Shown: piece by piece, positions 49,114-64,000 of the stretch
Layout: every line of letters begins with the position of its first letter
Numbering within the stretch: the stretch's first letter is position 1
Assembly: GCA_019429275.1 (NCBI GenBank)
Contig: JAHYJC010000019.1
Coordinates: 6,081-70,080, forward strand
Length of the DNA: 64,000 nucleotides
Direction of reading: 5' to 3'
Origin: Lentimicrobium sp.
GTDB lineage: Bacteria > Bacteroidota > Bacteroidia > Bacteroidales > Lentimicrobiaceae
Translations under genes and position numbers: made by a program
Notes under the pieces: generated by a model
The model's input: only the letters and a program-made list of their open reading frames with translations
The model's database searches: none
What the model was told of the DNA's origin: nothing

Positions 49114-50672
49114 TTATAAGCTTGAGGTCCACGTATGTTTTCATGAGTAAAAAGATCCACAGACGGCGACTGTGAGTCATCAGGTTGTTTGTCTAATCCT
49201 TTTATCAGGATGTTGTTTATCATTCTGTAATTGACACGTGAAGCCGGAATGGCTCGTTTGCAGGCGTTTTCAAAGCGTTCCGCGCCATACTGTTCTGCTA
49301 AACGGATCAAACCAAGGCAAGCCCTGTAGGCTTGCTCGATAAAAGATCTTGATTCCAGTATCCGCCTGGTAATTTCAACTGCATTTTCACCTATTGCTTT
49401 CGCCTTGTTTAAAAAATAGTCTGCATCCCAGCCTTTGGCTTCAAGATAGTTCTGGTGCTGCTCCGGCATGTGTTCTTTCAGCGTTGTATAATCATGCTTT
49501 CTATAATTACGAGTATGACTAGCAATCCTTTGTAATCCCATAAAAACTTCAACAACATCACTATTGTAGACCAGTTTTACTTTTTTGCCAATGTGCTGGT
49601 AGGGGACGCTATATTGATGATAATCCTCACCAAGTATGACATGATAGTTCTTCTGTACCTTAGCCATGGCGGTATGTTTGATAACGAACGGATCAGCAGG
49701 AAGAGCATTTAATAATGGAAGTTCGTCCTGTACAAAACGGTCAGTGCGACTATATGGCCGTTTCTGAAAAGGTGTACGATTGTGCTTGTTCAGGAAGATT
49801 AAGATCCTTTGATTTAATTCCGCCAGACTGTAAAAAGTATCATTACGTATAGACGCATAGATACGCAGATAAGAAATGTGAACCATGTTCTCAACGGTGG
49901 GCTTATCTTTTGGTTTGCCTACCCTGGTTGCAGATAAGCTTGTATTGTAGTGCAGAGACCATTGCAGGCAAAGCTCGCTGAATACCGGTTCATACCGGCT
50001 GCTCTTTTGAACATACTGCTTCATGTTGTCACTCAGGGCGTTTTCAGGCACTCCGCCAAAGTAACTCATACATCGACCCAGAGCGGCAAACAGATGCTCC
50101 TGCGAAGCACTGCGGAGGGCCTCAACGTATGTGTAACCACTATAGGGAAGCACGCACACAAGGACCGGACAGGAAATCACCTCTCCAGAGGTTGTATCAG
50201 CATAATACAGAGGTTTGCCGGCAAAATCAATCTGTACCCTTTCTCCGGCCTTATGCTCAAAGTGCATCGTGGCTATGTTTGTACGGAGGTGGTCTTTGGT
50301 ATGTTCGCAAAATTGCACATACCCATATCCCAAAGGAACTTCTTCTCTGTATTCTTGCCAGAGCTTTTGTCGGGTGACACCGGGTCGCGTTAACTCACGC
50401 TGATAATAATCCAGCCTGGTGCTCAAATACTCGTAACGAGAATCGGGCAGGGAAAGCGCTGTGCCAGGGTAAAACAACTTCGCCAGTTCTGCATCCGGCT
50501 TGCCAGATAGCTCATTTAGAGGCAGCGAAACTTGTAGTATCTTGGCAACATAAGCATCAATTGTATGACGTCCACAGTGCAGTTCACGGGATATCTCCCG
50601 CTTGGAACTACCCTTGGACATAAGTTGAATTATGCGTCGAATTTGTAACATCGTAATTGATTTATTGGACAT
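49110..50672 (-). CDS. istA: IS21 transposase IstA
   Basis: N-terminal HTH, QIDFAG, SDNMK, KDKPTVEN (DDE), YSVPYQ. Confidence 0.97.
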   Translation of the reverse strand: MSNKSITMLQIRRIIQLMSKGSSKREISRELHCGRHTIDAYVAKILQVSLPLNELSGKPDAELAKLFYPGTALSLPDSRYEYLSTRLDYYQRELTRPGVTRQKLWQEYREEVPLGYGYVQFCEHTKDHLRTNIATMHFEHKAGERVQIDFAGKPLYYADTTSGEVISCPVLVCVLPYSGYTYVEALRSASQEHLFAALGRCMSYFGGVPENALSDNMKQYVQKSSRYEPVFSELCLQWSLHYNTSLSATRVGKPKDKPTVENMVHISYLRIYASIRNDTFYSLAELNQRILIFLNKHNRTPFQKRPYSRTDRFVQDELPLLNALPADPFVIKHTAMAKVQKNYHVILGEDYHQYSVPYQHIGKKVKLVYNSDVVEVFMGLQRIASHTRNYRKHDYTTLKEHMPEQHQNYLEAKGWDADYFLNKAKAIGENAVEITRRILESRSFIEQAYRACLGLIRLAEQYGAERFENACKRAIPASRVNYRMINNILIKGLDKQPDDSQSPSVDLFTHENIRGPQAYK

Positions 50673-50724: not shown

Positions 50725-50800
50725 AGTGGCGCCGTTTGGTGTGAAATCACTGGCGCTATTTGCTCCGAATTTACTGGCGCTGTTTGCTCCGTAATAGTCA
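50725..50800. repeat. IS21 terminal inverted repeat (istA side) with three internal binding repeats
   Basis: TGGCGC-centred units at 50727, 50751 and 50775 (period 24). Confidence 0.9.
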
Positions 50801-51242
50801 GGCAACGGTATTTGTCGGAAAACCACCATTGTGGGGGCCTGCCGGATACAATAATGTTCAATATTATTACCTGCCCGATTTAGAGTCATATTATGATGTT
50901 AACAACTCCAGGTTTATCTATTATGAAGGAGGCACCTGGGTTCACCGGAAATATCTGCCCAGGCAATACCGGAGCTATGATCTTTACAGTGGCTACAAGG
51001 TTGTTATGCACGATTACAGGGGAAACTCGCCCTATGCTCATTTTAAAGAACATAAAAGCAAGTATGCAAGAGGCTATAAAGGCCAGGAGCAAAAAACCAT
51101 TGGCAACCGGCCTGATCAACGGAAACAGGGTTTAAAAAATGCAAAGCAGAATCATCCCGGCCAAAAGGTTTCAAAAATGAACCAGGGTAAAATTAAGGGG
51201 CACAACGGCAAAGGTGGCGGAGGCAAAGGCAGAAAAAAATAG
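50801..51242 (+). pseudogene. 5'-truncated secreted hypothetical protein; start and signal peptide replaced by the IS end
   Basis: The frame continues from the IS boundary as ATVFVGKPPLWGPAGYNNVQYYYLPDLESYYDV, resembling the mature N-terminus of a Bacteroidota family; no native start or signal peptide outside the IS; K/G-rich tail. Confidence 0.65.
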
Positions 51243-51362
51243 CCCGGACGTTGCTTTGCTTTATCAGGAATTATTGCTGTATTATCCCTCTTAATCAGGT
51301 GGCCGATACTCAACACCGGCTTTACTTTGAAATGCATTACAAAAAAATCAGGGTGCATTCAA

Positions 51363-51430
51363 ATGTGTGAAATATATAAATTTCTCAACGAATTATATAA
51401 CATCAAAAGGCTTGATTGTGCCGAAATTTG
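51363..51430 (+). promoter_or_regulatory. regulon site A: tandem box promoter
   Basis: ATGTGT-GAAATATATAA(51369)-N10-GAATTATATAA(51390)-N22-GAAATTTG(51423). Confidence 0.8.
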
Positions 51431-51463
51431 TATAAAATTATTTCACAACCTAAAACAAGAAAC

Positions 51464-51796
51464 ATGAAAAAAATGGCATTTGGATTGGTTACAATTATGC
51501 TGATGGTATTGTTTGCTCCGCTTCAATCTGAAGCAAAAATAAAAGACAAACTACCCTCATTGAAGAAAGAAAAAACTGAGATTTCGGTCGAGGCCCAGAC
51601 CATGGTAAACCGACTGGAAGAAATCAAAGCAATGGATCTTTCAAAAATGAACTCATCAGAAAAGAAAGAATTGCGTGCTGAAGTAAAGATGATAAAAAGC
51701 GATCTTCAGGCACAACAGGTAAACAGCAGCGGTGGAGTTTATATTTCTGTCGGAGCAGCTATTTTGATTGTATTGTTGCTGATCCTCCTTTTGTAA
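51464..51796 (+). CDS. conserved Bacteroidota hypothetical protein (signal peptide, coiled coil, C-terminal TM)
   Basis: MKKMAFG.. signal; RLEEIKAMDLSKMNSSEKKELRAEVK; GGVYISVGAAILIVLLLILLL. Confidence 0.8.
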   Translation: MKKMAFGLVTIMLMVLFAPLQSEAKIKDKLPSLKKEKTEISVEAQTMVNRLEEIKAMDLSKMNSSEKKELRAEVKMIKSDLQAQQVNSSGGVYISVGAAILIVLLLILLL

Positions 51797-51872
51797 TCAG
51801 GGGCATTCATAAAACCTGAAAATTCCTGGGGCATCAAAGCCTGAAGCTTTCAAACTTAAAAAAAATATAGAA

Positions 51873-52025
51873 ATGGGAAACTTACTTTACATCATAGCTG
51901 TCGTCCTGATCATTGCCTGGCTTATCGGATTGATTGGATTTCATGCAGGAGGAATTATTCACGTATTGCTGGTAATAGCAATCATTGCTGTTATTCTCAG
52001 ACTTATACAGGGAAAAAGGATTTGA
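51873..52025 (+). CDS. lmo0937 family small membrane protein (50 aa)
   Basis: Missing from the ORF track; hand translation MGNLLYIIAVVLIIAWLIGLIGFHAGGIIHVLLVIAIIAVILRLIQGKRI. Confidence 0.88.
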   Translation: MGNLLYIIAVVLIIAWLIGLIGFHAGGIIHVLLVIAIIAVILRLIQGKRI

Positions 52026-52224
52026 GAATATTAGATTTTACCTCAGATTTGCTTCTGTCGTAAAACAAGTACTTCCCTTTTAGAACCTTGTACCAATACT
52101 GTGAAGAAATACTAAAGCAAGACTTTTATCGACTATCAGCAAAACATAAATTACCAGATTTGAATTGAGTTTAATTGGATTGGCAGTTCCATTTTTCTTC
52201 TTGTTCTTATAGCTTTAGTATCTT

Positions 52225-52257
52225 AAAACCTCCGCTTGCTGACGGGGGTTTTTTTAT
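52225..52257 (+). terminator. rho-independent terminator
   Basis: AAAACCTCCG-cttgctga-CGGGGGTTTT followed by a T run. Confidence 0.75.
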
Positions 52258-52284
52258 TTCCTGAAAATAAATACTACAGTAAAT

Positions 52285-52352
52285 ATGTGTGAATGATGTA
52301 ACTTATGGTAATATTTATGTAACACTCTCCGGATGCATATATTTTATCTTTG
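52285..52352 (+). promoter_or_regulatory. regulon site B: tandem box promoter
   Basis: ATGTGT-GAATGATGTAA(52291)-N10-TATTTATGTAA(52312)-N22-TATCTTTG(52345). Confidence 0.85.
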
Positions 52353-52375
52353 AACAGAACCTAAAAATCAAAATT

Positions 52376-52561
52376 ATGCCACTTCTTACCATTTTAATTG
52401 TGCTGATTGTCGCCGGTGTTTTACTTTGGCTGGTAAATTCATTTATCCCCATGGACCGGAAAATAAAATCGATCCTGAATATCGTGGTGGTAATCATTCT
52501 CATCATCTGGCTGCTGAAGGCATTCGGAATTTTATCCTCTTTAGGCAACATAACTTTTTAA
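52376..52561 (+). CDS. Thivi_2564 family small membrane protein (61 aa)
   Basis: MPLLTILIVLIVAGVLLWLVNSFIPMDRKIKSILNIVVV; start moved to the ATG downstream of the -7 box. Confidence 0.82.
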   Translation: MPLLTILIVLIVAGVLLWLVNSFIPMDRKIKSILNIVVVIILIIWLLKAFGILSSLGNITF

Positions 52562-52676
52562 ACAGGTCAGCAAAAATATTCTGCTGACACATCCGTGGTT
52601 TTCCCGGGTTGCCAGGAAATTATTGGAAATTACTTTTTCGAAATTTACATTTACCTATACCTAACACCCTGAAATA

Positions 52677-52871
52677 ATGAATATTAAAAGAATTTTCGGG
52701 TCTATACTTACCATTCTTGGTATTGTTGGCCTTATTTATGCAGCCGTTTTATTTGCAGGCAATTCAGGGGGCACATCAGGGGTTAAATCCCTGATAATTT
52801 ATGCCGTACTTGGCCTGATATTCTTTATTTCCGGAATCGGACTTATCCGCTCTACCAAAGATGAATCATAG
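52677..52871 (+). CDS. small two-TM membrane protein (64 aa)
   Basis: KRIFGSILTILGIVGLIY...LGLIFFISGIGLIRSTKDE; A-rich translation initiation region. Confidence 0.78.
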   Translation: MNIKRIFGSILTILGIVGLIYAAVLFAGNSGGTSGVKSLIIYAVLGLIFFISGIGLIRSTKDES

Positions 52872-52898
52872 CTAAACCCGGTCAACAAACCTTTTAAG

Positions 52899-52938
52899 AA
52901 GTTGCATCAAGCCACATTTACCCGGTTCGATGCAACTT
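52899..52938. terminator. stem-loop between convergent genes
   Basis: AAGTTGCATC / GATGCAACTT 10-bp stem with a 20-nt loop, T run on the plus side. Confidence 0.5.
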
Positions 52939-52993
52939 TTGCTTTTGGTACAAAGTGCTTTTGAGAGCCGCAAAAATGAACCTGTAAATCATA

Positions 52994-53995
52994 TCATAAG
53001 GTAATGGAATCATTCAGATTCCCCGGTTTTGGTATTTCCGGAATTTTCTGCGGTTCAATTTCAATCTTCGCTTTTACAATTTGCACTGCCCAGGCATTGG
53101 GCACTATTTTCTTGCCGTGGGTGATGGCATATACCTTGGTAAATTCAGCCCCGAAATAAAGAATAATGGCTGAATAGTAAACCCATACAAGAATCAGGAT
53201 TATTGAGCCGGTGGCACCGTACCACGAAGCAATAACGGAACGGCTGAGATAAGCGCCTATGCCAAACTTACCTATCATAAAAAGAAAGGTTGTGAAGGAT
53301 GCACCTATCAGGCAATCTTTCAATACAACCTTACCATCGGGCAGGGTTTTGAAAATGACCGTAAACAGCAGGGTTATGATGATAAACACAATCAGAATAT
53401 TCAGGAAATAAAATAAATATAACGTGTCTTTCGGAAAAAATTCTGCAAGCTGTTTGCTCAGCACATCCATCAGTGAGTTCACAATTAAACCTACCAACAA
53501 CAAAAATCCCACAGAACCGATCATTGAGAAAGACATCAGGCGGTTTTTCAGAAATTTAACGATTCCACGCTTTGGCTTTGCCTTGAGACCCCATATGTAA
53601 TTGATTGAATCCTGGATTTCGGCAAAAACTCCTGAAGCTCCGACCAGTAAAAATCCCACACCCAGCACAGTTGCAAAAGTGCTGCTGTGCGACAATTTTA
53701 CATTCTTTATAATGTCCTGTATCTGAATTGCGGCATTGCTGCCAACCAGCCCGTTTATCTGGCCAAAAATTTCGCCGCGCACAGCCTCTTCTCCAAAAAA
53801 GAATCCACTCAGGCTAATGATGATGATGAGCAGCGGCGGCAGCGAAAAAATGGTGTAATAGGAAAGGGCTGCACCCAGTTTCATTCCATTGTCGTAAATA
53901 AATTCATTAAATGTCTCCTTGAGCAGATACCAGATTTTACCAAGTGATTTTTTGAATTTTTCAATTGACGGTATGGAAATTTGCATAAGTTTCAT
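52994..53995 (-). CDS. YihY/virulence factor BrkB family membrane protein
   Basis: GAALSYYTIFSLPPLL, GASGVFAEIQDSINYIW, FKTLPD, YGATGSIILILVWVYYSAIILYFGAE. Confidence 0.93.
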   Translation of the reverse strand: MKLMQISIPSIEKFKKSLGKIWYLLKETFNEFIYDNGMKLGAALSYYTIFSLPPLLIIIISLSGFFFGEEAVRGEIFGQINGLVGSNAAIQIQDIIKNVKLSHSSTFATVLGVGFLLVGASGVFAEIQDSINYIWGLKAKPKRGIVKFLKNRLMSFSMIGSVGFLLLVGLIVNSLMDVLSKQLAEFFPKDTLYLFYFLNILIVFIIITLLFTVIFKTLPDGKVVLKDCLIGASFTTFLFMIGKFGIGAYLSRSVIASWYGATGSIILILVWVYYSAIILYFGAEFTKVYAITHGKKIVPNAWAVQIVKAKIEIEPQKIPEIPKPGNLNDSITL

Positions 53996-53997
53996 GG

Positions 53998-55830
53998 TTA
54001 CTGAAATAAGGTGGTTGTGGGTTTGCCGATTTCAAAATCCCTGATATTAAAATCTTCTGTTTCATAGGAGTTGAATTTAATGATATTGTTCCCTTTGCCC
54101 GGGATAACAGGATAATAAGAAATGGATACCTGAAAAGTGTTGATTATCAAGTTTATATTTTTTATGAGCACACCCAGCCCGAATTGAGAATAAATACGGC
54201 TGCCTGAAAAACCTGTTTCAGTATCGCCCAGCACACCCAAAGAGCAGATAAAGTAGGGACCAAAGTAGAAGCCAATGAAATTCCAGGGGCTGTATGCCTG
54301 CGTTTGCAATGTCAGCAACAACCTGCTGTTGCCCGACAACACCTGACTGCTGAAGCCGGGCAGGCCCACATTATTATTCAGCGTAAGACTGTCGGTAGCA
54401 TAACGGTTCAGCCCAACGGTAAGTTGAGGCTTCACAAATTGCCGGAATTTCCATTTTCCAACCTCCTTCAGGCCGGTGAAGTAAATAAAGCCTGCCGAAA
54501 AGATTCCCTGTTCAATTTTTGAATTGTGAATAAAAGTGCCGAAATCAAAGTTTGCACTCAGGTAACCAAATGAGAAATAATTGCCAAAAGAAGCCTGTGC
54601 AGCAGTGTAGAACCGGCCCGTACTGTTCCGTTTCTGGTAACCACCTGTCAGGCTGTAAACATTCCCAACAGGTACATCTTCGGTAAGCCCAAATTTAAAC
54701 ACATATTTATCCTGAAAATATTTTCTTCTTGAAACGCCAATACTGGCCAGGTAAAAATCTTCATCGTGGTATAAATACTCCGGATCCGCCGATTCTTCAG
54801 GCTTTTCGGGATAGCGAATACGCGTGTAGCGGATGGCAGTAATGAAATTTGAGGTACGGCTGTTCTCCGAATTTCCTTTGAATAACTGTATGGCGCTGCC
54901 TGCCCAGTAATCCTGGGCATTAAATTTATACCGCTCAACACGAACCAGTGTATCATTAAATCGCTGAAAGATTTTCTGAGCCTGCTGTGAAATATTTACA
55001 CCTGCTGCCCACTTTGCATAGGGTGAGAAAAACGGACGGTCAATGTCAAAACTCTTTCTGAAATTACCGAACTCATCAGTGCCATAGTACAATTTTGAAC
55101 TTATAAAACTATTCATGATGTTGGGCACAGAATAGCTTGTTTTAAAATCATGTCCACCGGTTGAGAGATGCCGCGTCAATCCATTCCTAAACTCATGTCC
55201 CAGGCCTGCGAAATTTTTTTCAGTAATTTTAATTCCAACACGGGTATTTGTTACATCAAATTCAGGAATGATACTCCATGTATCCAGTTCCCTGATAAAA
55301 ATATCTACAGAATCGGAATTTTCAGATGTGGCTTTGATAAAAAAAGCTACATCGGTTACATAACCCCTGCTGCGCACCAGCCGTTCCGATTCTTTAACCA
55401 GCAATGAATCAAATGCCTGGTTTTTACGAAAAAGCAAAAGATTGCGGATGGTGGCCGGTTGCGTTTTAATGTGCAGTTTGTTGCCGGCCCTTGAAGTAAA
55501 GCTGGGATAAGATTTAATGGTGTCGGCAATTGAATTTCCGAAAGGATCGAGTGTTTCGATGTGAATTTGCCTGATGATTTTACCCTCAAACGTATCGTAA
55601 GGTTTTTGTACCGGGACTATATGTGGTTTCTTATTTACATCATCTGCCACGGGTTTAAAGAACAGCCGGTACATGAACCTTGTAAACCTGCTGCGCTCTG
55701 CATAATCTTCAATATTCCCGTAAAGAAGCGTAGAATCTTTTTTTGCAGGTGTTTGCTGGGCATAGGTATAATCACTCGTTAGAATTTGAGCAAAACACAG
55801 CATAAAAGTTATTTTGAACCACATCTGCAT
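53998..55830 (-). CDS. Omp85/TamA-like outer-membrane protein (POTRA + beta-barrel)
   Basis: Signal peptide; POTRA-like TIRNLLLF..FDSLLVKESERLVR..DVAF..VDIFIRELDTWS; amphipathic strands; ends LFQ. Confidence 0.7.
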   Translation of the reverse strand: MQMWFKITFMLCFAQILTSDYTYAQQTPAKKDSTLLYGNIEDYAERSRFTRFMYRLFFKPVADDVNKKPHIVPVQKPYDTFEGKIIRQIHIETLDPFGNSIADTIKSYPSFTSRAGNKLHIKTQPATIRNLLLFRKNQAFDSLLVKESERLVRSRGYVTDVAFFIKATSENSDSVDIFIRELDTWSIIPEFDVTNTRVGIKITEKNFAGLGHEFRNGLTRHLSTGGHDFKTSYSVPNIMNSFISSKLYYGTDEFGNFRKSFDIDRPFFSPYAKWAAGVNISQQAQKIFQRFNDTLVRVERYKFNAQDYWAGSAIQLFKGNSENSRTSNFITAIRYTRIRYPEKPEESADPEYLYHDEDFYLASIGVSRRKYFQDKYVFKFGLTEDVPVGNVYSLTGGYQKRNSTGRFYTAAQASFGNYFSFGYLSANFDFGTFIHNSKIEQGIFSAGFIYFTGLKEVGKWKFRQFVKPQLTVGLNRYATDSLTLNNNVGLPGFSSQVLSGNSRLLLTLQTQAYSPWNFIGFYFGPYFICSLGVLGDTETGFSGSRIYSQFGLGVLIKNINLIINTFQVSISYYPVIPGKGNNIIKFNSYETEDFNIRDFEIGKPTTTLFQ

Positions 55831-55873
55831 TTGTCAAAATTAAAAATTTTAAACCTGACATTTTCAGGAATGG

Positions 55874-56836
55874 CTATTTCGGTTGATCCTGTTCTTTTTG
55901 TTCGGCGGCTTCCTGTTCTGCTGCCTCAATCATTTTTAATTCATCGGCTGCAGCTTTCTTTTTGAACATTCCCTTCAACAATAAACTATGCTGGAAAGCT
56001 TCAATGGTTGAATTTAATCCTTCGGTAGTTTTATTGAGATTATAAATAGTGCTGTTTATGTTTCCGGCTATGATGGTATCATAAATCAATCTGCCAAGGG
56101 TGCCTTTGCCTTCATTAATTTCGATCACACTTCTCTCAACTTGCTTTGTAATGCCTTCTGAATTATCTGCAGTAACTCTCAGACTTGCTAAAATATCGGT
56201 TAAATTTTGCCTCGATGCCTCCATGGTTTCATTCAATCGGGATGAACTTTCTTTAAAGTTCTGAATGGTCTGGTTAATATCTTCAGCAATGGTTGAATCC
56301 TGAATTAACCTTCCAAGTGTTCCTTTGCCTGAGTTTACATTTGTCATCACTTCGGCAAGTTCCTTTGTTATTACTTCAACACTACCTGCGGTTACCTGAA
56401 GACTGGCAATAATGGCATCCGTTTCAACAGGTTCGGTCGAATCAAGGTGTTGGCCATCCTTTGCCAAAGGAGCATCTGTAGTTCCCTGTGTAATTATCAA
56501 GAGCCGGTCGCCTATCAGCCCTTCTGAACCTATGGCCACTTTACTGTCTGATTTAATAAATTGCTGAACCTCTTTTCGAACCAGCATATCAACCCTTACC
56601 GTTGAGTCGTTGATGATTGAAATTACATCAACTGTCCCTACATTAATGCCTGAGAAACGGATATTGTTCCCCACCTGCAATCCGCTTACATTGTAAAAAT
56701 TTGTAGTAAGTTTAAAAACAGGGTTGAACAGATTTTTTTGCTTGCCGATGATAAATATGGCCATCATAAAAAGCGCCAGCCCTCCGACAACAAAAAGACC
56801 TAAGCGGACTTTAAATTTTTGTGTGTGCGTATCCAT
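55874..56836 (-). CDS. mlaD: MlaD/MCE family protein with an extended helical region
   Basis: KVRLGLFV TM, NVSGLQVGNNIRFSGINVGTV, IGSEGLIGD; duplicated GKGTLGRLI. Confidence 0.92.
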   Translation of the reverse strand: MDTHTQKFKVRLGLFVVGGLALFMMAIFIIGKQKNLFNPVFKLTTNFYNVSGLQVGNNIRFSGINVGTVDVISIINDSTVRVDMLVRKEVQQFIKSDSKVAIGSEGLIGDRLLIITQGTTDAPLAKDGQHLDSTEPVETDAIIASLQVTAGSVEVITKELAEVMTNVNSGKGTLGRLIQDSTIAEDINQTIQNFKESSSRLNETMEASRQNLTDILASLRVTADNSEGITKQVERSVIEINEGKGTLGRLIYDTIIAGNINSTIYNLNKTTEGLNSTIEAFQHSLLLKGMFKKKAAADELKMIEAAEQEAAEQKEQDQPK

Positions 56837-56894
56837 TTTGTTATTGTTTTACACTAATTCGTATTTCAGTTTCATTGCCGGGATGTTCCGGAAT

Positions 56895-57677
56895 TTATAA
56901 AAAGAAGGCCTGAATGGCAGGATCATCCGATTTTTCAAAATCCTCAACAGTTCCTTCTTTATATACGGACCCTGAATCGAGCATAATGATTCGGTTTGCT
57001 GTTTTCAGTGCGCATTTAATATCATGTGTAATGATGATGGATGAGGTTTTATACTTCTCCTGAACATCATTGATGAGTTCGCTTATTTCGTTGGAAGTAA
57101 CCGGGTCGAGTCCGGTTGTTGGCTCATCGTAAAGCATAACCAGAGGGTCCACAACAATAGTACGGGCCAGACTAATACGCTTGCGCATGCCACCCGATAG
57201 TTCGGAGGGCATTTTGTTCTGCGCATCGGGCAAACCCACATTTTCAAGCACCTCATTTATTTTGTTATCCCTCTCGTTTTTCGAGAGATTCTTTTTCAGT
57301 CTGACTAACGGAAATTCCAGATTCTGTTTCACGGTCATTGAGTCGTACAAAGCACCGCTCTGAAAAAGGAAACCGACCTTCTGTCTGAGTTCGCTCATTT
57401 CTTTTCTGCTCAGCGTTTTCACATTTTTCCCAAATACGTCAATGGTGCCGCCTTCAAAATTCAATAAGCCAACAATGCACTTTATCAGCACCGATTTACC
57501 GGTACCTGATTTGCCCAGCACAACCAGGTTTTCGCCATTGTAAAGGTTTAATGAAGCATCTTCTAAAACCTTTATTTTACCGAATGACTTTTGCAGATTG
57601 TTTATCCTGATAACCGGTTCTGCTACCTTTTCAGCAGATTGAATCTCATTTGGAGCGAATTTAAGTTCAGTGTTCAT
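56895..57677 (-). CDS. mlaF: MlaF-type ABC ATPase
   Basis: GKSGTGKS, FLFQSGALYDSMTV, LSGGMRKR, LYDEPTTGLDP, ITHD. Confidence 0.93.
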   Translation of the reverse strand: MNTELKFAPNEIQSAEKVAEPVIRINNLQKSFGKIKVLEDASLNLYNGENLVVLGKSGTGKSVLIKCIVGLLNFEGGTIDVFGKNVKTLSRKEMSELRQKVGFLFQSGALYDSMTVKQNLEFPLVRLKKNLSKNERDNKINEVLENVGLPDAQNKMPSELSGGMRKRISLARTIVVDPLVMLYDEPTTGLDPVTSNEISELINDVQEKYKTSSIIITHDIKCALKTANRIIMLDSGSVYKEGTVEDFEKSDDPAIQAFFL

Positions 57678-58540
57678 AATACCAGCATATCAGTAATTTG
57701 TACGGCAATCATATCCACCACCAGCACCAGAAGCGATGCCAGCACAACCGCAGAATTTGCAGCCACCCCAACACTTTCGGTTCCACGTCCGGCATGATAA
57801 CCTTTGTAGGTTCCCACAAAGCCAATAACTGCTCCAAAGAAAAAGGTTTTAATTAGTGCCGGAAAAAAATCCATAAAATCTACTACTTTGAATGCCTGTG
57901 CAAAAAAGAGCGTAAGTGGTACATCCCCTTTGATATTTGCCCCTGCCCAACTTGCCAGAATACCAAAAGCATCGGCATACAAAACAAGCAACGGTATCAT
58001 AAGTGTTGCCGCCAGCACCCTGGTTACTACCAGAAATCTTATTGGATTTGTTGAAGACACTTCCATGGCTTCAATCTGCTCGGTCACTTTCATGGAGCCC
58101 AGTTCGGCACCCATGCCCGATCCGATTTTTCCGGCGCAGATAAGGGCGGTAATTACCGGCCCCATTTCCCTGATAAGCGATACAGCAACCATTCCTGGCA
58201 GCATGGATACTGCTCCGAAATCAACCAGCACCGGGCGCGATTGTATGGTGAGCACCAGCCCCATAATGGCTCCGGTAACTGTTATGAGCGGTAAAGTTTT
58301 GTATCCGATTTGAAAACACTGGCGAAAGAATTCCTTAAATTCAAAATCGCGCGAGAATAATTCTCTGGTAACCTGCGATATAAACATAAATACATCCGCA
58401 ACATCGGTCAGAAAGTTGCCGGCTGCCTCGGTTTTTGAAAGGGTGTTTTCGCTAAGTTTGCTTATAGAACGCACTGTTACGTCCCGGAGTTTCGGAATAA
58501 CCTTGACAACCGGGATAAACTTTTTCGTATTTATTTTCAT
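57674..58540 (-). CDS. mlaE: MlaE family ABC permease
   Basis: IREMGPVITAL, GKIGSGMGAELGSMKVTEQIEAME, VGVAANSAVV; ATGA overlap with mlaF. Confidence 0.94.
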   Translation of the reverse strand: MKINTKKFIPVVKVIPKLRDVTVRSISKLSENTLSKTEAAGNFLTDVADVFMFISQVTRELFSRDFEFKEFFRQCFQIGYKTLPLITVTGAIMGLVLTIQSRPVLVDFGAVSMLPGMVAVSLIREMGPVITALICAGKIGSGMGAELGSMKVTEQIEAMEVSSTNPIRFLVVTRVLAATLMIPLLVLYADAFGILASWAGANIKGDVPLTLFFAQAFKVVDFMDFFPALIKTFFFGAVIGFVGTYKGYHAGRGTESVGVAANSAVVLASLLVLVVDMIAVQITDMLVL

Positions 58541-58730
58541 TATGCCCGGGTTTTATTATGTTGACAATTCACTTTCAGTAAGATTGCTGTTTGGTTAATC
58601 AACGGTAGTCAGTCCGTTTTTCATGGTTCTAAATATTCCTTTGCCGAAACAGCCATTCAATGAAAGGCAAAAGAACATGACGCACCAGGCAGAAACTGCC
58701 TGTGAATTTGTATGCCAGGATTATATGCCG

Positions 58731-58798
58731 CAAATTTACCGGCCATTTGCGGCGAATGCATTACATAACTATTTCTATTAGTTACATGATTCACACAT
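58731..58798 (-). promoter_or_regulatory. regulon site C: tandem box promoter of the mla operon
   Basis: Minus strand ATGTGT-GAATCATGTAA(58792)-N10-TAGTTATGTAA(58771)-N22-TAAATTTG(58738). Confidence 0.85.
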
Positions 58799-58859
58799 CT
58801 CAATTGCTGGTTTATAAAATGGACAGCCTTTTTTACATTAAACCCTGCCCCGATTTACA

Positions 58860-58927
58860 ATGTGGGAATCATGTAACTCTGTTGCAGAATTGTGTAACGC
58901 TATTCGGTAGCCTTTAACAGACCTTTG
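58860..58927 (+). promoter_or_regulatory. regulon site D: tandem box promoter of the ytxH operon
   Basis: ATGTGG-GAATCATGTAA(58866)-N10-GAATTGTGTAA(58887)-N22-GACCTTTG(58920). Confidence 0.85.
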
Positions 58928-58963
58928 TCTTTCTATATATTGTTCACTTTTAAATTCAAAACA

Positions 58964-59242
58964 ATGAGCACAGGAAAAGTAGTTTTAGGTGTAGTGGCAG
59001 GTGTTGCACTTGGCGCAGTAGCAGGCATCTTATTTGCCCCCGACAAAGGGAAATCTACCAGAAAGAAAATCTCGAAAAAAGGAGAAGATCTTACCAATGA
59101 TTTGGAAAAGAAGTTCAACAAATTCGTTGATAAATATTCTAAAAAGTTTGACAAGCTAAAGGATGAGGCCAATGCCATGGCTGATGAAATCAACTTCGAA
59201 GCAAAAGAAACCGAAGAGCAGGTAAAATCTGAAAAGCGCTAA
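58964..59242 (+). CDS. YtxH domain-containing protein
   Basis: MSTGKVVLGVVAGVALGAVAGILFAPDKGKSTRKKI followed by a coiled coil; ATG start preferred. Confidence 0.92.
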   Translation: MSTGKVVLGVVAGVALGAVAGILFAPDKGKSTRKKISKKGEDLTNDLEKKFNKFVDKYSKKFDKLKDEANAMADEINFEAKETEEQVKSEKR

Positions 59243-59357
59243 CTCAGGCAAATTTTAAATCTACCATCAGCAAAGCAAGTACAATTCCTTATGGCTGGTG
59301 GCCCGGTTGGATAGTACCTTCTGAGTTAATGAAAGTTATTAAAACAAAAATCAGTAT

Positions 59358-59699
59358 ATGGAAACTCCGGTAAGGCAGTTAGAGTTATTGTTTGAAAAAG
59401 CAAAGGCTTATGGAACAACCACCTATGAGCTTTCGAAACTTAAAGCGGTGGAAACAACTGCAACCATTACAACATCTCTGGTGTCGCGCATGGTCGTGGT
59501 CGCTTTTGCCGCTATATTTTTAATTATCCTGAGCACAGGAGTGTCGTTTTGGCTTGGAGAACTACTTGGAAAGATATACTATGGCTTTTTTGCGGTAGCC
59601 GCATTTTACCTGGTAATCAGCCTTATTTTACACTTTTACCTCCATAAGTGGATTAAAAAACCATTAAGTGATTCCATTGTTTCTCAGGCACTTCAATAA
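59358..59699 (+). CDS. phage-holin-family-like (YqjE/DUF1469-like) membrane protein
   Basis: YELSKLKAVE N-terminus, two TMs, WLGELLGKIYYGFFAVAAFYL. Confidence 0.75.
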   Translation: METPVRQLELLFEKAKAYGTTTYELSKLKAVETTATITTSLVSRMVVVAFAAIFLIILSTGVSFWLGELLGKIYYGFFAVAAFYLVISLILHFYLHKWIKKPLSDSIVSQALQ

Positions 59700-59707
59700 G
59701 ACTTATC

Positions 59708-60112
59708 ATGGAAAATATATCGACTGCAGCCGGACTCAGAGATGCGATTGTTTATCTTGAAGCCGAACAGGCCAGAGAGGGTGCTGAATTGAATGAACAG
59801 TTCAGGATTGTTTATGATAGCCTGAAACCCATTAACCTTATTAAAGGCGCTTTTGAGGAAATAACCGGCTCAAAGGATATTCAGGAAAACCTGTTGACGA
59901 GTTCGGTGGGACTTGCCACAGGATATCTGTCAAAATTATTGGTTCAGGGTATAATGAAAAGACCGTTGAATAAATTTTTCGGCACAGCCGTAATGTTTGG
60001 TACCAAAAACATAGTCTCACAAAACCCGGAAGCCATAAAGTTTTTAGGTAAGATATTTTTTAACCTTTTCAGAGGCAAAGCAGATTCTGCCAAAAATAAA
60101 CCAGATGAATAA
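59708..60112 (+). CDS. hypothetical protein, third gene of the YtxH trio
   Basis: LRDAIVYLEAEQ coiled coil, LKPINLIK, amphipathic or hydrophobic C-terminal half. Confidence 0.75.
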   Translation: MENISTAAGLRDAIVYLEAEQAREGAELNEQFRIVYDSLKPINLIKGAFEEITGSKDIQENLLTSSVGLATGYLSKLLVQGIMKRPLNKFFGTAVMFGTKNIVSQNPEAIKFLGKIFFNLFRGKADSAKNKPDE

Positions 60113-60128
60113 ATAATCCGGAATTCAG

Positions 60129-61238
60129 ATGGATACAATTCTGAAGTTGCCGTTCTATGCAAAAGCATCCATCCTTTTGATAGGATTGTATGTTCTCATT
60201 GCCATGCTCAGTATTGCCCAGGGAATTATTGTTCCATTGGTTTTTTCCGTTATTCTGGCCATTTTGCTTCATCCGGTGGTCAGTTTTTTTGTCAGATCAG
60301 GAATAAATAAAGTTATCGCCATTATTCTTACCCTCATGCTAACCATACTTGTGATGGCAGCCTTTGGCTTATTGATTTTTTCACAGGCAAGCAAGTTCAG
60401 CGAAAGCTGGCCACTGATGGTTGATAAATTCACTCTAATGCTTAACGATAGCATTGGTGGAATTTCAGGTTATTTCGACATAAGCCCTCAAAGCATTCAT
60501 GAATGGATAGAAAAAACCAGGGTTGAAATACTCAACAACAGCGGTGCAGCCATAGGGCAAACCCTTATAAGTGTTGGCAGCAGCCTGGTTGCTTTATTTC
60601 TGATTCCGGTTTATATTTTTTTAATCCTCTTCTACCAACCTCTGCTCATTGATTTTATTCACAAGCTATTTGGTGTCGGCAACAAAAGCAAGGTTACAGA
60701 AATTATTACCCAAACAAAAAATGTTGTTCAGCAATACCTCGTTGGGCTGGTTATAGAAACAATCATCATAGCAGTGCTTGAAATTACTGCTTTGCTGATC
60801 CTCGGTATTGAATATGCCATACTCCTTGGCATTATTGGCGCTTTACTCAATCTTATTCCATACATAGGCGGCGTGGTGGCTGTTGCCATGCCAATGATGG
60901 TTGCTTTGGCTACCAAGGATTCAGGCTGGTATGCCTTGTACGTGCTTGCCATCTATTATTTCATTCAAATTATCGACAACAATTATATAGTTCCGATGAT
61001 TGTTGCCTCAAAAGTGAAAATCAATGCACTTTTTTCAATCATAGCTGTAATAGCTGGCAATGCCCTCTGGGGCGTTTCCGGAATGTTCCTTTCCATACCT
61101 CTGCTGGCTGTTGTAAAGTTAATTTTCGACAACATTGAACCCATGAAACCCTGGGGCTTTCTGTTGGGCGACACCATGCCATCCATTCTGAAAATTGATC
61201 CGATTCTGAAAACCATAAAAAAACTGTCAAAAAAATAA
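60129..61238 (+). CDS. AI-2E (PerM) family transporter
   Basis: IIVPLVFSVILAILLHPVV, LNLIPYIG, QIIDNNYIVPMIV, LWGVSGMFLSIPL. Confidence 0.93.
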   Translation: MDTILKLPFYAKASILLIGLYVLIAMLSIAQGIIVPLVFSVILAILLHPVVSFFVRSGINKVIAIILTLMLTILVMAAFGLLIFSQASKFSESWPLMVDKFTLMLNDSIGGISGYFDISPQSIHEWIEKTRVEILNNSGAAIGQTLISVGSSLVALFLIPVYIFLILFYQPLLIDFIHKLFGVGNKSKVTEIITQTKNVVQQYLVGLVIETIIIAVLEITALLILGIEYAILLGIIGALLNLIPYIGGVVAVAMPMMVALATKDSGWYALYVLAIYYFIQIIDNNYIVPMIVASKVKINALFSIIAVIAGNALWGVSGMFLSIPLLAVVKLIFDNIEPMKPWGFLLGDTMPSILKIDPILKTIKKLSKK

Positions 61239-61312
61239 ACACGGGTTTAATGGCAACTACTCCTGCGACGGGGAATACTCGAACCGGATTGAGTTTTAAG
61301 AACCGCTGTTTA

Positions 61313-61380
61313 ATGTATGAATTATATAAATCTAATTGAGAAAAGTATAATGCATCCATCTGCCTGCTGAAGTAATTTTA
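61313..61380 (+). promoter_or_regulatory. regulon site E: tandem box promoter (degenerate second box)
   Basis: ATGTAT-GAATTATATAA(61319)-N10-GAAAAGTATAA(61340)-N22-TAATTTTA(61373). Confidence 0.65.
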
Positions 61381-61471
61381 TTGCGCAAATACCGGAGTTT
61401 CATCACCTGAATTTTTCTGCAGAGTCCATTTACGGAATTGAAATATTATCCGGATCAAACACAAACAGGCT

Positions 61472-62953
61472 ATGAAAGTTCTCTTGGTCTATCCTCAATA
61501 CCCTGATTCATTCTGGAGCTTCAAACATGCATTGCGTTTTATATCGAAGAAGGCAGCAGTTCCACCGCTTGGCTTAATAACAGTATCTGCCATGCTGCCA
61601 GCAACCTGGCAGAAAAAACTGGTGGATATGAACGTTTCAAAACTCAAAACTTCTGACATCGAATGGGCTGATCTGGTTTTTATCAGTGCCATGTATATTC
61701 AGAAAGAGTCGGTTGACTATGTCATACGCGAATGTAAAAAATCGGGAGCCCGGATGGTAGCCGGTGGCCCACTGTTTACCCAGGAATACCAGAATTATCC
61801 GCAGATTGACTATTTTGTGCTGAACGAGGCTGAAATTACATTGCCCCTTTTCCTGAAAGACATAGAGAATGGTAAAACTCCTGAAAATGTATATAAAACC
61901 GATGAGTTTGCTGACATTACACAAAGTCCGGTACCGGATTTTCATTTATTGTCGATGAAGGATTATGTATTTATGGATGTTCAGGTCTCGCGCGGGTGCC
62001 CTTATTCATGCGAGTTTTGCGAAATTACTACATTACTGGGCCACAAGGTAAGGATGAAAAGCACCCGGCAGGTATTGAATGAACTTGAAGCCCTTTACAA
62101 GCTTAACTGGCGCGGATCGGTTTCTATTGTTGATGATAATTTCATCGGCAACAAACAGCAGATCAAGCTCGATTTGCTTCCCGGCCTCATACAATGGATG
62201 AATTTACACAAACACCCTTTTGTGTTTAGCTCCCAGACATCAATAAATCTGGCCGATGATGATGAACTGTTGTCGATGATGACCGATGCGGGTTTCGGTT
62301 CAACTTTTATCGGCATAGAAACACCTTCCGCAGCATCACTGAATGAATGCAATAAGGTGCAGAATAAAAACCGTGATATGCTTCACAGCGTGTTAAAGAT
62401 TCAACGTGCCGGAATGTTGGTTTCGGGAGGCTTTATCGTCGGCTTCGACAGCGATTCGCCGGCTGTGTTTCAGCAGCAGATCGATTTCATTCAGCAAAGC
62501 GGAATTGTATCGGCCATGGTGGGGCTGCTGAATGCCCCGAAAAATACCAGGCTTTACGACAGGCTTGGCAAAGAAAACAGGCTGGTTCTGGAGTCGTCGG
62601 GCAACAATACAGATTTTACCATGAATTTTGTGCCAAGGATGAATGTCCAGGAATTGATTACAGGCTATAAAAAAATCATACACGACATTTATACAACCCG
62701 GCCCTACTACAAAAGAGTGCGAAAGTTACTGGTCAACTATAAACGCAGAGATAAAAAAACGGCAAGTATCAGTTATGCCAATATGAAGGCACTCATCAGA
62801 TCATTTCTTGTTATCGGTATTTTAAAACGTGGCCGAAGCGATTTCTGGAAATTTATGATCTGGACACTCTTTATCAAACCTGGCTCAATGGCCGATGCAA
62901 TCGAATACTCAATCTATGGATATCACTACAGGACCGTTTACGGCCTGCGATAG
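61472..62953 (+). CDS. B12-binding radical SAM protein (class B methyltransferase-like, DUF4070 C-terminus)
   Basis: YPDSFWSF..PPLGL, VAGGP (cobalamin domain), RGCPYSCEFC (CX3CX2C), VDDNFIGN, FIGIETP, GFIVGFDSD. Confidence 0.92.
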   Translation: MKVLLVYPQYPDSFWSFKHALRFISKKAAVPPLGLITVSAMLPATWQKKLVDMNVSKLKTSDIEWADLVFISAMYIQKESVDYVIRECKKSGARMVAGGPLFTQEYQNYPQIDYFVLNEAEITLPLFLKDIENGKTPENVYKTDEFADITQSPVPDFHLLSMKDYVFMDVQVSRGCPYSCEFCEITTLLGHKVRMKSTRQVLNELEALYKLNWRGSVSIVDDNFIGNKQQIKLDLLPGLIQWMNLHKHPFVFSSQTSINLADDDELLSMMTDAGFGSTFIGIETPSAASLNECNKVQNKNRDMLHSVLKIQRAGMLVSGGFIVGFDSDSPAVFQQQIDFIQQSGIVSAMVGLLNAPKNTRLYDRLGKENRLVLESSGNNTDFTMNFVPRMNVQELITGYKKIIHDIYTTRPYYKRVRKLLVNYKRRDKKTASISYANMKALIRSFLVIGILKRGRSDFWKFMIWTLFIKPGSMADAIEYSIYGYHYRTVYGLR

Positions 62954-62996
62954 TATGGGGAAATCGTCAGAAATCACATATATTTTACCCTCAAAA

Positions 62997-63064
62997 AAGT
63001 GGGAATTATGTAAAATTTCTGAAAAGTTGTGTAACAGAACCTTTCGTAAAGCTTATCTACTTTG
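62997..63064 (+). promoter_or_regulatory. regulon site F: tandem box promoter of the regulator operon
   Basis: AAGTGG-GAATTATGTAA(63003)-N10-AAGTTGTGTAA(63024)-N22-CTACTTTG(63057). Confidence 0.82.
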
Positions 63065-63094
63065 TACCATCACAAATTAACTTAAAATCACAAA

Positions 63095-63307
63095 ATGAAA
63101 ACACTTGCTCTAATCTTACTGGTTATTGGTCTGGGATTGACCATCTTCACCACCTTTACCTACTTTACAAAGGAAAAAATTGTTGACATCGGTGAACTTG
63201 AAATCACTGCAAAAAAACAGAATAATCTTAACTGGTCTCCTTTGATCGGTATCGGAGTTATTGCCGTTGGTGGAATTCTTTACTGGCAGTCAACCAAAAA
63301 ACAATAA
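63095..63307 (+). CDS. small two-TM membrane protein (70 aa)
   Basis: TM - TKEKIVDIGELEIT - WSPLIGIGVIAVGGIL TM. Confidence 0.82.
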   Translation: MKTLALILLVIGLGLTIFTTFTYFTKEKIVDIGELEITAKKQNNLNWSPLIGIGVIAVGGILYWQSTKKQ

Positions 63308-63310
63308 CTC

Positions 63311-63877
63311 TTGAGACTTAGCATTAAATACATGGTAAGTGCCCGCTGTAAAATGCTGGTTAAGGAAGAGTTAAAGAACCTCGGGCTTCATTACGTCTTC
63401 GTCGACCTTGGGGCAGTTGAAGTGATGGAGAATCTCACTTTAGCCCAGCGCGAGCAATTTGGCAAGGCCTTGCAAAGGTCAGGATTGGAGCTAATGGACG
63501 ACAGAAAAGCCATACTGATTGAGAAAATTAAAAACGTAATTGTTGAGCTGGTTCATCACTCAGATGAAATACCCAAAGAAAACTTTTCAGATTACCTGAG
63601 TAAAAAACTGGACTACGATTATACCTATCTTGCAAATCTTTTTTCTGAAGTTCTGGGCACAACCATTGAAAAGTTTTACATAAACCACAAAATTGAGCGG
63701 GTAAAGGAACTCATCTTTTATGATGAACTAAACATTTCCGAAATCGCCTGGAAATTAAATTACAGCAGTGTGGCGCATTTATCCAATCAGTTTAAAAAAG
63801 TGACCGGCCTCTCACCCTCGCATTTTAAAAAGTTAAAAATCAAAAGCCGTGTTCCCATTGAAGAGATTGGGAATTAG
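63311..63877 (+). CDS. AraC family regulator with a short HMA-like N-terminal domain
   Basis: TTG start; YMVSARCKMLVKEEL N-domain; YDYTYLANLFS and KIERVKEL..LNISEIAWKLNYSSVAHLSNQFKKVTGLSPSHF double HTH. Confidence 0.93.
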   Translation: MRLSIKYMVSARCKMLVKEELKNLGLHYVFVDLGAVEVMENLTLAQREQFGKALQRSGLELMDDRKAILIEKIKNVIVELVHHSDEIPKENFSDYLSKKLDYDYTYLANLFSEVLGTTIEKFYINHKIERVKELIFYDELNISEIAWKLNYSSVAHLSNQFKKVTGLSPSHFKKLKIKSRVPIEEIGN

Positions 63878-63917: not shown

Positions 63918-64000
63918 ATGAAATCAAAAAAAAAACCAGAATCAAAATATGACAGAAGCCTCAGTGAAAGTCCTGACCCTCTGATTACAAACACTGGCAA
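63918..64000 (+). CDS. possible start of a downstream gene (partial)
   Basis: ATG preceded by an A-rich stretch; MKSKKKPESKYDRSLSESPDPLITNTG open to the window end. Confidence 0.3.
   Translation, partial: MKSKKKPESKYDRSLSESPDPLITNTG

Follow-up and report, generated by a model that had tools for sequence, protein, structure and literature searches.

What ties together a run of some 13 kb of envelope genes in a bacterium of the phylum Bacteroidota? The question is raised by a block (positions 50801-63877) in a stretch of Lentimicrobium sp. DNA of 64,000 nucleotides (nt), taken from the forward strand of contig JAHYJC010000019.1 (positions 6,081 to 70,080; GenBank assembly GCA_019429275.1). We call this stretch the window, and all coordinates below are positions in it unless a contig or locus is named. 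A reading made from the sequence alone had proposed that the block is a self-contained, portable envelope-remodelling or general-stress module under one AraC regulator. We consider it probable that the block is instead one island of a genome-wide, activator-dependent AraC-box regulon for envelope protection and remodelling under stress or growth arrest, and the genome has at least two such islands.

The answer starts at the promoters. Gene families were assigned by Pfam and NCBIfam searches of the open reading frames (ORFs) of the block with curated cut-offs applied, and the regions upstream of six transcription units were compared by repeat finding and alignment. This gave a single module, aAtGTGTGAATnATGTAAC-N9-AATTnTGTAAC, in which two 12-bp boxes (consensus GAATnATGTAAC) stand in direct orientation with a 21-bp period and GTGTG lies immediately upstream of box 1. 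A degenerate pattern for this module has six matches in the window, all of them in the block, against 0.01 expected by chance, which bears out the shared tandem-box promoters of the sequence-only reading. The proximal box ends 22 nt before the A of the Bacteroidota sigma-A -7 box (TAnnTTTG). In a pooled set of 224 sites from 59 genomes or loci, a sample biased towards AraC neighbourhoods, the boxes occupy module positions 8-19 and 29-40 and the -7 box positions 62-69; the TTTG of the -7 box begins at position 66 in 130 of the 224 sites and at position 65 in 10 more. The regulated promoters have no -33 TTTG. Because box 2 occupies the place of that element, they look activator-dependent, of the class II type, and without a -33 element where one is expected they should be weak unless an activator is bound. 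A direct repeat with a 21-bp period beside the core promoter is the classic AraC/XylS arrangement, as for AraC at araI1-I2 and XylS at Pm.

The six sites divide the block into transcription units. Site S1 (51362-51430, plus strand, 38.8 bits, with the TTTG of its -7 box at 51427-51430) is placed to drive the genes for a 111-amino-acid (aa) protein and a DUF5670 protein, and S2 (52284-52352, plus, 44.5 bits) those for a Thivi_2564 protein and a 64-aa protein. S3 (58731-58799, minus, 49.4 bits) precedes mlaE-mlaF-mlaD-omp85-yihY and stands back to back with S4 (58859-58927, plus, 51.5 bits), the best-scoring site of the genome, which precedes the genes from ytxH through the AI-2E transporter. 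S5 (61312-61380, plus, 37.3 bits), with weaker boxes and the -7 box TAATTTTA, leads to the radical SAM gene, and S6 (62996-63064, plus, 44.4 bits) is the site of the AraC operon, which encodes a 70-aa protein, AraC, a kinase and a receiver.

A weight matrix run over the whole 4.19-Mb assembly found 17 sites that score 35.5 bits or more; the next candidate reaches 21.4 bits. All 17 are intergenic, and each points at a gene 38-242 nt downstream. Eleven of them lie outside the block, which thus makes up about a third of the regulon of this genome and can no longer be called self-contained. The cargo outside the block, as named by Pfam, consists of an M48 peptidase with an L,D-transpeptidase; an OmpA/glycine-zipper lipoprotein with an outer-membrane barrel; a CheB-CheR-PAS protein, followed by a PAS protein and a second AraC paralogue (60% identical); a CheB-like protein and baeRF-family proteins; a 1661-aa TamB homologue; a DUF4382 protein with CsbD and a coiled-coil lipoprotein; KaiC-KaiB-KaiB-PAS with an ice-binding-like protein; and another outer-membrane barrel. 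A head-to-head overlap of 159 nt joins contigs C43 and C81 into a second island, with eight motif sites, which holds an AraC paralogue of the clade called B below, the CheB-CheR-PAS protein, TamB and CsbD. On contig C26 (3306-11416) the KaiC-KaiB-KaiB-PAS operon, and then the ice-binding-like protein and a pyridoxal-dependent-decarboxylase-like protein (a name given by eye), stand behind a 46.5-bit site, so that a clock-type ATPase seems to belong to the cargo. As for the assembly, a repeat of about 125 nt recurs in near-identical copies at the ends of at least 14 contigs (C24:1-126, the 3' end of C81 and C97:1-126 among them), probably as a multicopy element at which the assembly breaks.

The module and its genes are found together in other genomes as well. 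A strict pattern derived from this genome was counted in 41 related genomes: six or more sites occur only in its own genome (13) and in six others (6-17), and the reversed-pattern control gave 0-1 per genome. In the regulon genomes these genes recur behind the sites, often with their order kept; relative G013, for instance, has the motif before mlaE-mlaF-mlaD-omp85-yihY, before the ytxH trio, before the radical SAM gene and before the 70-aa gene and AraC. An alignment of the AraC protein returned more than 578 loci from Bacteroidales, Chitinophagaceae, Flavobacterium, Cytophagales, Saprospiraceae, Balneolales and other groups, and the 80 loci kept for a motif scan (1.34 Mb) hold 136 sites of at least 28 bits against none in the reversed sequence. 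The flanks of the sites are unrelated, and the module alone is conserved across the phylum. Families downstream of the pooled sites recur in up to 26 of the 59 genomes or loci. AraC leads with 26 genomes, followed by the receiver (18), the hybrid kinase and DUF5670 (17 each), YtxH (13), AI-2E, an outer-membrane barrel, CsbD and the coiled-coil lipoprotein (12 each), the 111-aa protein (11), MlaE (10), the two ytxH partners, GH130 and GT4 (9 each), MlaF (8), MlaD and OmpA/glycine-zipper (7 each), Omp85-like (6), YihY and ice-binding-like (5 each) and radical SAM (3). The objection that the sequence-only reading had raised against itself, that the genes might not co-occur elsewhere, fails on these counts, and because the same families follow the same motif in many genomes across Bacteroidota, one cis-element unites these genes as a regulon.

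The regulon is sparse, with three or more strict matches in 5 genomes of an even draw of 401 high-quality Bacteroidota genomes, and it is patchy within the genus, where G001 and G003, two of the five relatives closest in Pgi identity, do not have it. Compared with G013 and G017, the module proteins show 75-90% identity where Pgi shows 82-86%, and GC content is ordinary. Recent horizontal transfer was considered and rejected, since the module proteins have diverged about as much as Pgi and their base composition is unremarkable. Of the portability that had been claimed, the patchy distribution is what remains, and this fits gain or loss equally well.

What, then, reads the boxes? The regulator gene of the block (63311-63877, plus) encodes 188 aa, and its C-terminal domain scores 60.2 bits with HTH_18 (cut-off 33.6) and 33.5 bits with HTH_AraC (cut-off 26.6), which places it in the AraC/XylS family. 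An AlphaFold2 (AF2) model with a predicted local distance difference test (pLDDT) score of 87.6 consists of a 65-aa HMA-fold N-terminal domain, a linker helix and a MarA-like double helix-turn-helix (HTH) domain. In Foldseek comparisons the DNA-binding domain matches YesN and AraT best, and also MarA and SoxS (TMt 0.71-0.82 for the four). The N-terminal domain has the beta-alpha-beta-beta-alpha-beta order (strand 2-6, helix 11-23, strands 28-32 and 35-38, helix 44-56, strand 60-62 in the AF2 model) and matches Atx1 and GolB with TMt 0.70-0.73 (Atx1 0.73). It does not carry the MxCxxC metal-binding motif of HMA domains but reads MVSARC, with SxRC in place of CxxC; the serine at the first motif position is kept in both of the clades described next, and more distant homologues read MVCxRC. 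A tree of 111 AraC homologues splits into two clades. In clade A, which holds the window gene, the kinase gene normally comes next; clade B is often encoded just upstream of A and holds the paralogue on contig C43. The proposal of one AraC regulator accordingly gives way to two conserved paralogue clades with a linked kinase and receiver.

The AraC operon had also been taken to end at 63877. It continues from 63918 (plus) into an 806-aa hybrid histidine kinase with coiled-coil repeats and PAS, HisKA, HATPase and REC domains by Pfam, of which the 5' end (63918-64000) lies in the window; the rest was read further along the contig (C24 69998-72849 for the kinase-receiver region), where a 144-aa receiver-only gene follows. 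REC domains are thus found in the kinase and in the separate 144-aa protein; the AraC protein has none by Pfam or AF2, and it is not a REC-AraC response regulator. The order AraC-kinase-receiver is kept in 17-18 genomes.

Several observations connect these regulators to the boxes. The motif lies upstream of the AraC operon in 26 genomes, which suggests that AraC is autoregulated. In the set of 41 genomes all seven with at least six sites have an AraC of 58% identity or more, against 3 of the 34 others (Fisher p 5e-6), and in a class-level sample AraC is present in all 7 genomes that have sites and in 15 of the 30 that have none (p 0.017). AraC is the family most often directly behind the motif, and the AraC proteins are the sole DNA-binding proteins recognised among the annotated island families. 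Judged from these sequence comparisons, the AraC family is very probably necessary for the regulon, and the small HMA-fold/AraC proteins probably bind both boxes.

The family is also transcribed in nature. Sequencing runs containing the window itself were sought and none was found. At a locus from a peat metagenome-assembled genome (MAG) of the Stordalen type (L109), metatranscriptomes gave one exact 151-nt contig inside the AraC gene, and peat contigs with a depth of up to about 75 cover the two most conserved AraC stretches (L109:5390-5732) of several related organisms; since these contigs cover AraC-family genes, the family is transcribed in situ.

Two side observations concern the place of the gene. 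In G014, G019 and G005 (loci L006-L008), three species of the genus which do not have the regulon, the clade-A AraC lies directly downstream of a sucB-like E2 gene, as assigned by eye, and in G014 and G005 the kinase gene follows it. The position beside this 2-oxoglutarate dehydrogenase E2 gene may be the ancestral location of the AraC gene. The sucB-AraC intergenic region of G019 (L007:~1100-1400) is filled by an imperfect tandem array in which a unit of about 24 nt (ctatttatagtgcc...) is repeated about ten times; the clade-A AraC downstream of it is without the motif.

A mechanism can be proposed from these parts. The HMA-fold/AraC proteins would occupy both boxes and, as class II activators, bring in RNA polymerase; the clade-A protein (63311-63877) would activate its own operon, its clade-B paralogue being encoded in the second island; and the PAS-containing hybrid kinase and the receiver-only protein would probably set the activity of the activator. 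The regulated cargo would include a second, dedicated MlaEFD MCE transporter coupled to a divergent Omp85-like barrel and YihY, together with the YtxH trio and the AI-2E transporter, the B12 radical SAM enzyme and several tiny membrane proteins, and it would protect and remodel the envelope during stress or growth arrest.

The stress part of this proposal comes from the cargo. Sigma-B or RpoS regulons typically include CsbD, YtxH, lmo0937-type peptides, UspA, YqjE-like proteins, M48 peptidases and L,D-transpeptidases, and in other phyla CsbD, UspA, YtxH, DUF5670 and OmpA/glycine-zipper proteins are hallmarks of general-stress cargo. The wider cargo here (CsbD, UspA, YtxH, DUF5670, OmpA/glycine-zipper, KaiBC) resembles those regulons, and its envelope share is strong, with the second MCE transporter and its Omp85-like partner, TamB, the OmpA-like protein and outer-membrane barrels. 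RpoS and SigB models searched against this genome gave best scores of 264 bits (cut-off 379) and 75 bits (cut-off 315), so the statement that Bacteroidota lack such a system can be upheld for this genome, in which nothing exceeds the curated cut-offs. The resemblance of the cargo and the absence of RpoS and SigB above cut-off together suggest the stress reading. The same search brought out two sigma-70-like genes of about 290 aa (C70:12944-13756 and C51:129331-130149), both scoring about 260 bits on the RpoS model; one of them is presumably sigma-A.

A number of findings weigh against this AraC-driven stress regulon. AraC is far more widespread than the strict motif, being present in those 15 of 30 class-level genomes that have no sites. 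G014, G019, G449-G451 and G453 have a clade-A AraC and zero strict-pattern sites; the kinase stands beside it in all of these except G019, where none was found, and in most of these genomes a weak version of the module can still be recognised 49-57 nt before the AraC start. Being built from the Lentimicrobium genome, the strict pattern may miss diverged motifs in others. In G453 (a MAG, L081:9890-9950) both boxes upstream of AraC read TCACAA instead of ATGTAA, with the 21-bp spacing kept, and its AraC does not differ in the recognition helices from relatives whose boxes are normal. A search for a variant TCACAA regulon in G453 and five other genomes returned that one site in G453, so that, with unchanged helices and a single variant site, covariation of box and helix offers no argument. 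The number of sites correlates loosely with the presence of two or more paralogues (p 0.016): Lacihabitans has 12 sites and one AraC homologue found, of clade B, and some genomes with both paralogues have zero strict sites. Among cultured carriers, the 12 strict sites are those of Lacihabitans sp. LS3-19, and Flavobacterium fluvii DSM 19978 has 5. To judge from these sequences, the binder may be paralogue A, paralogue B or both. The peat metatranscriptomes, for their part, speak of transcription of the AraC family and not of co-regulation, and the stress function is drawn by analogy from the cargo of sigma-B and RpoS.

Some of these findings would fit a different reader of the boxes, be it an unrecognised DNA-binding protein or an alternative or extracytoplasmic function (ECF) sigma factor that uses TGTAAC as a -35-like element, with the AraC genes as mere cargo. 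The many AraC homologues in genomes without the strict motif and the changed boxes beside an unchanged AraC in G453 favour this, as do G054 and G059, which have 2-3 good sites and no AraC homologue at E <= 1e-45, and the two sigma-70-like genes of about 290 aa in this genome. However, two identical boxes one double helical turn apart typify an activator that binds in tandem rather than a sigma factor, and what follows downstream is the usual sigma-A -7 box, at a constant spacing. Among the annotated recurrent island families no sigma or anti-sigma gene was recognised, and AraC, the commonest family directly behind the motif, co-occurs with it in every in-class regulon genome tested. We regard this alternative as unlikely.

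About equally improbable is that the regulon is driven by AraC but serves a narrower programme, such as cold or freezing adaptation, a light- or clock-gated (KaiBC) change of the envelope, or dormancy or cyst-like differentiation. The regulon does contain ice-binding-like proteins, KaiC-KaiB-KaiB, PAS sensors and CheB/CheR-PAS proteins, GT4/GH130 pairs recur in 9 genomes (compatible solute or glycan synthesis being a guess), and envelope machinery (Mla, Omp85-like, TamB, L,D-transpeptidase) accounts for much of the cargo. Yet the general-stress hallmarks of other phyla listed above, from CsbD to the OmpA/glycine-zipper proteins, are part of it too, it is found in lineages from very different habitats, and the data single out no one stimulus. 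A last alternative, that the module is a repressor operator or the remnant of a dispersed mobile repeat, recommends itself by the IS21 element that abuts the block and by the patchy distribution among close relatives, but it is very hard to reconcile with sites that are all intergenic, gene-directed and at a fixed distance from the -7 box, with unrelated flanks around a module that alone is conserved across the phylum, with promoters that have no -33 element and are expected to be weak without an activator, and with the absence of terminal inverted repeats and target duplications.

Turning from control to cargo, every gene that the sequence-only reading listed in the block is present in the ORF listing and the Pfam and NCBIfam searches, and a hydropathy scan of the small proteins predicts transmembrane segments in all five of its small membrane proteins. 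The largest unit, read from S3 on the minus strand, begins with an MlaE-type permease (57674-58540; Pfam MlaE, E 8.3e-68), followed by an MlaF-type ABC ATPase (56895-57677; ABC_tran, E 1.2e-32) and an MlaD-type MCE protein (55874-56836; MlaD, E 9.6e-14) with an N-terminal transmembrane segment and a C-terminal extension of about 200 aa. Next come a divergent Omp85-like outer-membrane protein of 610 aa (53998-55830), with one POTRA-like domain and a beta-barrel by fold comparison, and, as the last gene, a membrane protein of the YihY/BrkB family (52994-53995; Pfam E 1.5e-48), which has the same operon position in G013 and G017. These mla genes are a second copy, for a divergent and housekeeping-like mlaEF pair lies on contig C31. 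There is no MlaB, MlaC or MlaA among the genes of the operon, and no genome-wide search for MlaA or MlaC was made.

The 610-aa protein deserves a closer look. Sequence searches of Pfam, NCBIfam and the PDB gave no meaningful match, and it has at least 2877 homologues, of which those with a name are all called "hypothetical protein". An AlphaFold model built from 36 homologues (pLDDT 71) predicts one alpha/beta domain and then a large barrel, and its Foldseek matches in the PDB are exclusively Omp85 proteins (BamA, TamA, Toc75; E ~1e-11, probability 1.0), with TM scores of 0.3-0.42 at that pLDDT. We call it Omp85-like because of these exclusive fold matches; the earlier assignment to an Omp85-like barrel thus holds at the level of the modelled fold, as a divergent family. 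It is 56% identical to the copy in G013 (L016:14265-16106), where the flanking MlaD and YihY are 85% and 88% identical, and about 56-60% identical to those in G017, G006 and G034. Such low identity beside conserved flanks suggests, at the sequence level, allelic replacement or diversifying selection on a surface-exposed protein.

The radical SAM gene (61472-62953, plus) encodes a B12-binding enzyme with B12-binding, Radical_SAM and DUF4070 domains in Pfam, and its CPYSCEFC fits the CxxxCxxC pattern of class B, the cobalamin-dependent enzymes. None of the NCBIfam equivalog models reaches its cut-off, with scores of 54 bits for HpnJ (cut-off 578), 33 for HpnR (650) and 66 for rSAM_ladder_B12 (360). 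With scores below the curated equivalog cut-offs, it cannot be assigned to a hopanoid- or lipid-modifying type (HpnP, HpnR, HpnJ, ladderane), and the lipid modification that had been ascribed to it is unsupported speculation. The enzyme stands behind the motif in about three genomes and is a rare member of the regulon.

The remaining genes are small, with one exception. Behind S1 lie the genes for the 111-aa protein (51461-51796, plus), with a signal peptide or anchor, a coiled-coil region and a C-terminal transmembrane segment, and for a 50-aa DUF5670 (lmo0937-like) membrane protein (51873-52025, plus; Pfam E 1.2e-11). A scan for sigma-70-type promoters and terminators gave counts close to those of shuffled sequence, except for one strong terminator at 52225-52252, directly before S2. 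The unit behind S2 consists of a 61-aa Thivi_2564-family membrane protein with two transmembrane segments (52376-52561, plus; NCBIfam NF041949, 79 bits against a cut-off of 33) and a 64-aa membrane protein with a transmembrane segment by the hydropathy scan (52677-52871, plus). The two genes are probably co-transcribed, and G013 has them in the same order behind one motif. S4 leads into the ytxH trio, namely a YtxH-like membrane-anchored protein (58964-59242, plus; Pfam E 2.8e-19), a protein with two transmembrane segments and a weak Holin-X/YqjE-like match (59358-59699, plus; PF07332, 20.6 bits, below the cut-off of 28.4), and a 134-aa protein without a Pfam or NCBIfam family match (59708-60112, plus). 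The Holin-X/YqjE-like family accompanies ytxH in 9 genomes, and in 9 genomes the 134-aa protein is kept after its two preceding genes. The exception in size is the AI-2E family (PerM-like) transporter that follows (60129-61238, plus; Pfam E 3.3e-53). The 70-aa protein that opens the AraC operon (63095-63307, plus) has a transmembrane segment, and its family is found in 6 genomes.

The left boundary of the block, outside the regulon, is an IS21-type element (48355-50672, minus; istB 48355-49113, istA 49110-50672), of which the genome has one full copy. Its right end carries three 24-bp terminal repeats (50727-50795). Adjoining it is a remnant (50760-51242, plus) of a secreted protein family with a basic tail, truncated at the 5' end and recognised by alignment, with no Pfam match; its homology to intact relatives begins at about QATVFVGKPPLWGP, past the IS21 terminal repeats. 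The intact homologues have a signal peptide and stand behind the motif, and in this genome the signal peptide and promoter have been replaced by the IS21 end (50727-50830). In relatives, the homologue has a small outer-membrane barrel gene and an AraC paralogue on its upstream side, and family clustering finds no copy of that barrel family in this genome, so that the insertion probably came with a deletion. This IS21 copy is the sole mobile element at the block, and it has damaged the left edge of the island.

How does the proposed regulon compare with known systems? It shares with AraC/XylS class II activation (araI1-I2 of araBAD, Pm, RhaS/RhaR) two direct repeats with a 21-bp period, the proximal one replacing the -35/-33 element, and a regulator with an AraC-type double-HTH domain. 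It differs in that this regulator has 188 aa, with an HMA-fold N-terminal domain in place of the sugar- or effector-binding cupin, in that it comes as two conserved paralogues, in its wiring to a hybrid kinase and a lone receiver, and in that 17 dispersed promoters take the place of one catabolic operon. MarA and SoxS consist of the DNA-binding domain alone, act as monomers on one degenerate, asymmetric 20-bp marbox and are controlled by their own synthesis. Like MarA, SoxS and Rob, the regulator proposed here is a small AraC-family protein with a dispersed stress and envelope regulon, and its modelled DNA-binding domain superposes on MarA and SoxS; unlike them, it has tandem sites in rigid phase, an extra HMA-fold domain with a linker helix, and a linked phosphorelay. 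With YesN and AraT, the best structural matches of its DNA-binding domain, it shares a kinase and a receiver domain in the same operon, but here the receiver is a separate protein and AraC carries the HMA-fold domain, so that a contact between receiver and AraC is hypothetical.

The sigma-factor stress responses (sigma-B of Bacillus and Listeria, RpoS of gamma-proteobacteria, EcfG-NepR-PhyR of alpha-proteobacteria) have cargo in common with this regulon (CsbD, YtxH, lmo0937/DUF5670, UspA, YqjE-like, L,D-transpeptidase, M48 peptidase), and an autoregulated regulator that receives its signal through a kinase would be a further likeness. Here, however, a dedicated sigma factor is lacking, the housekeeping -7 box is retained at the promoters, and control by an activator is proposed. 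Among transport systems, the operon resembles Mla/MCE transporters in having MlaE, MlaF and MlaD homologues together, and TamA/TamB in its Omp85-fold outer-membrane partner and a TamB homologue in the same regulon. It departs from Mla (MlaFEDB-MlaC-MlaA) in containing no MlaC, MlaB or MlaA, in the long C-terminal extension of its MCE protein and in ending with an Omp85-like barrel and YihY. TamL of Bacteroidota (PMC12045153) is a comparison system beside TamA-TamB.

Full-text literature searches turned up no paper on the motif, the regulator or the regulon, nor a description of a Bacteroidota master regulator of the general-stress or stationary-phase response. The mechanism, by analogy, would be of a known kind, AraC/XylS class II activation. 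What is new is the architecture of the regulator, the paralogue pair, the wiring to kinase and receiver and the proposed place at the head of a phylum-wide protective regulon, and, in this window, the MCE/Omp85-like/YihY operon as cargo, the radical SAM member and the IS21-truncated edge. A bolder version, which we put forward tentatively and think may well not hold, is that the HMA-AraC pair, hybrid kinase and lone receiver are the general-stress master switch of environmental Bacteroidota, doing the job of RpoS, sigma-B or EcfG, and that, as the block suggests, it commands a dedicated machine across the envelope, in which an MCE transporter docks to a new Omp85-type barrel together with YihY, TamB being encoded elsewhere in the regulon, and which would rebuild the outer membrane under stress.

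Bacteroidota dominate soils, waters and guts, and the AraC-box regulon offers parts of their physiology that can be put to the test: a cis-element that can be scored in genomes, a candidate activator pair and a candidate sensor relay. Its cargo includes families without an assigned function, such as DUF5670, Thivi_2564, the YtxH trio and the 610-aa Omp85-like protein, and if the proposal is true it would give these families a physiological context. It would also supply a promoter toolbox for inducible expression in Bacteroidota, and, in the MCE transporter and its Omp85-like barrel, point to a stress-specific route of lipid or envelope transport.

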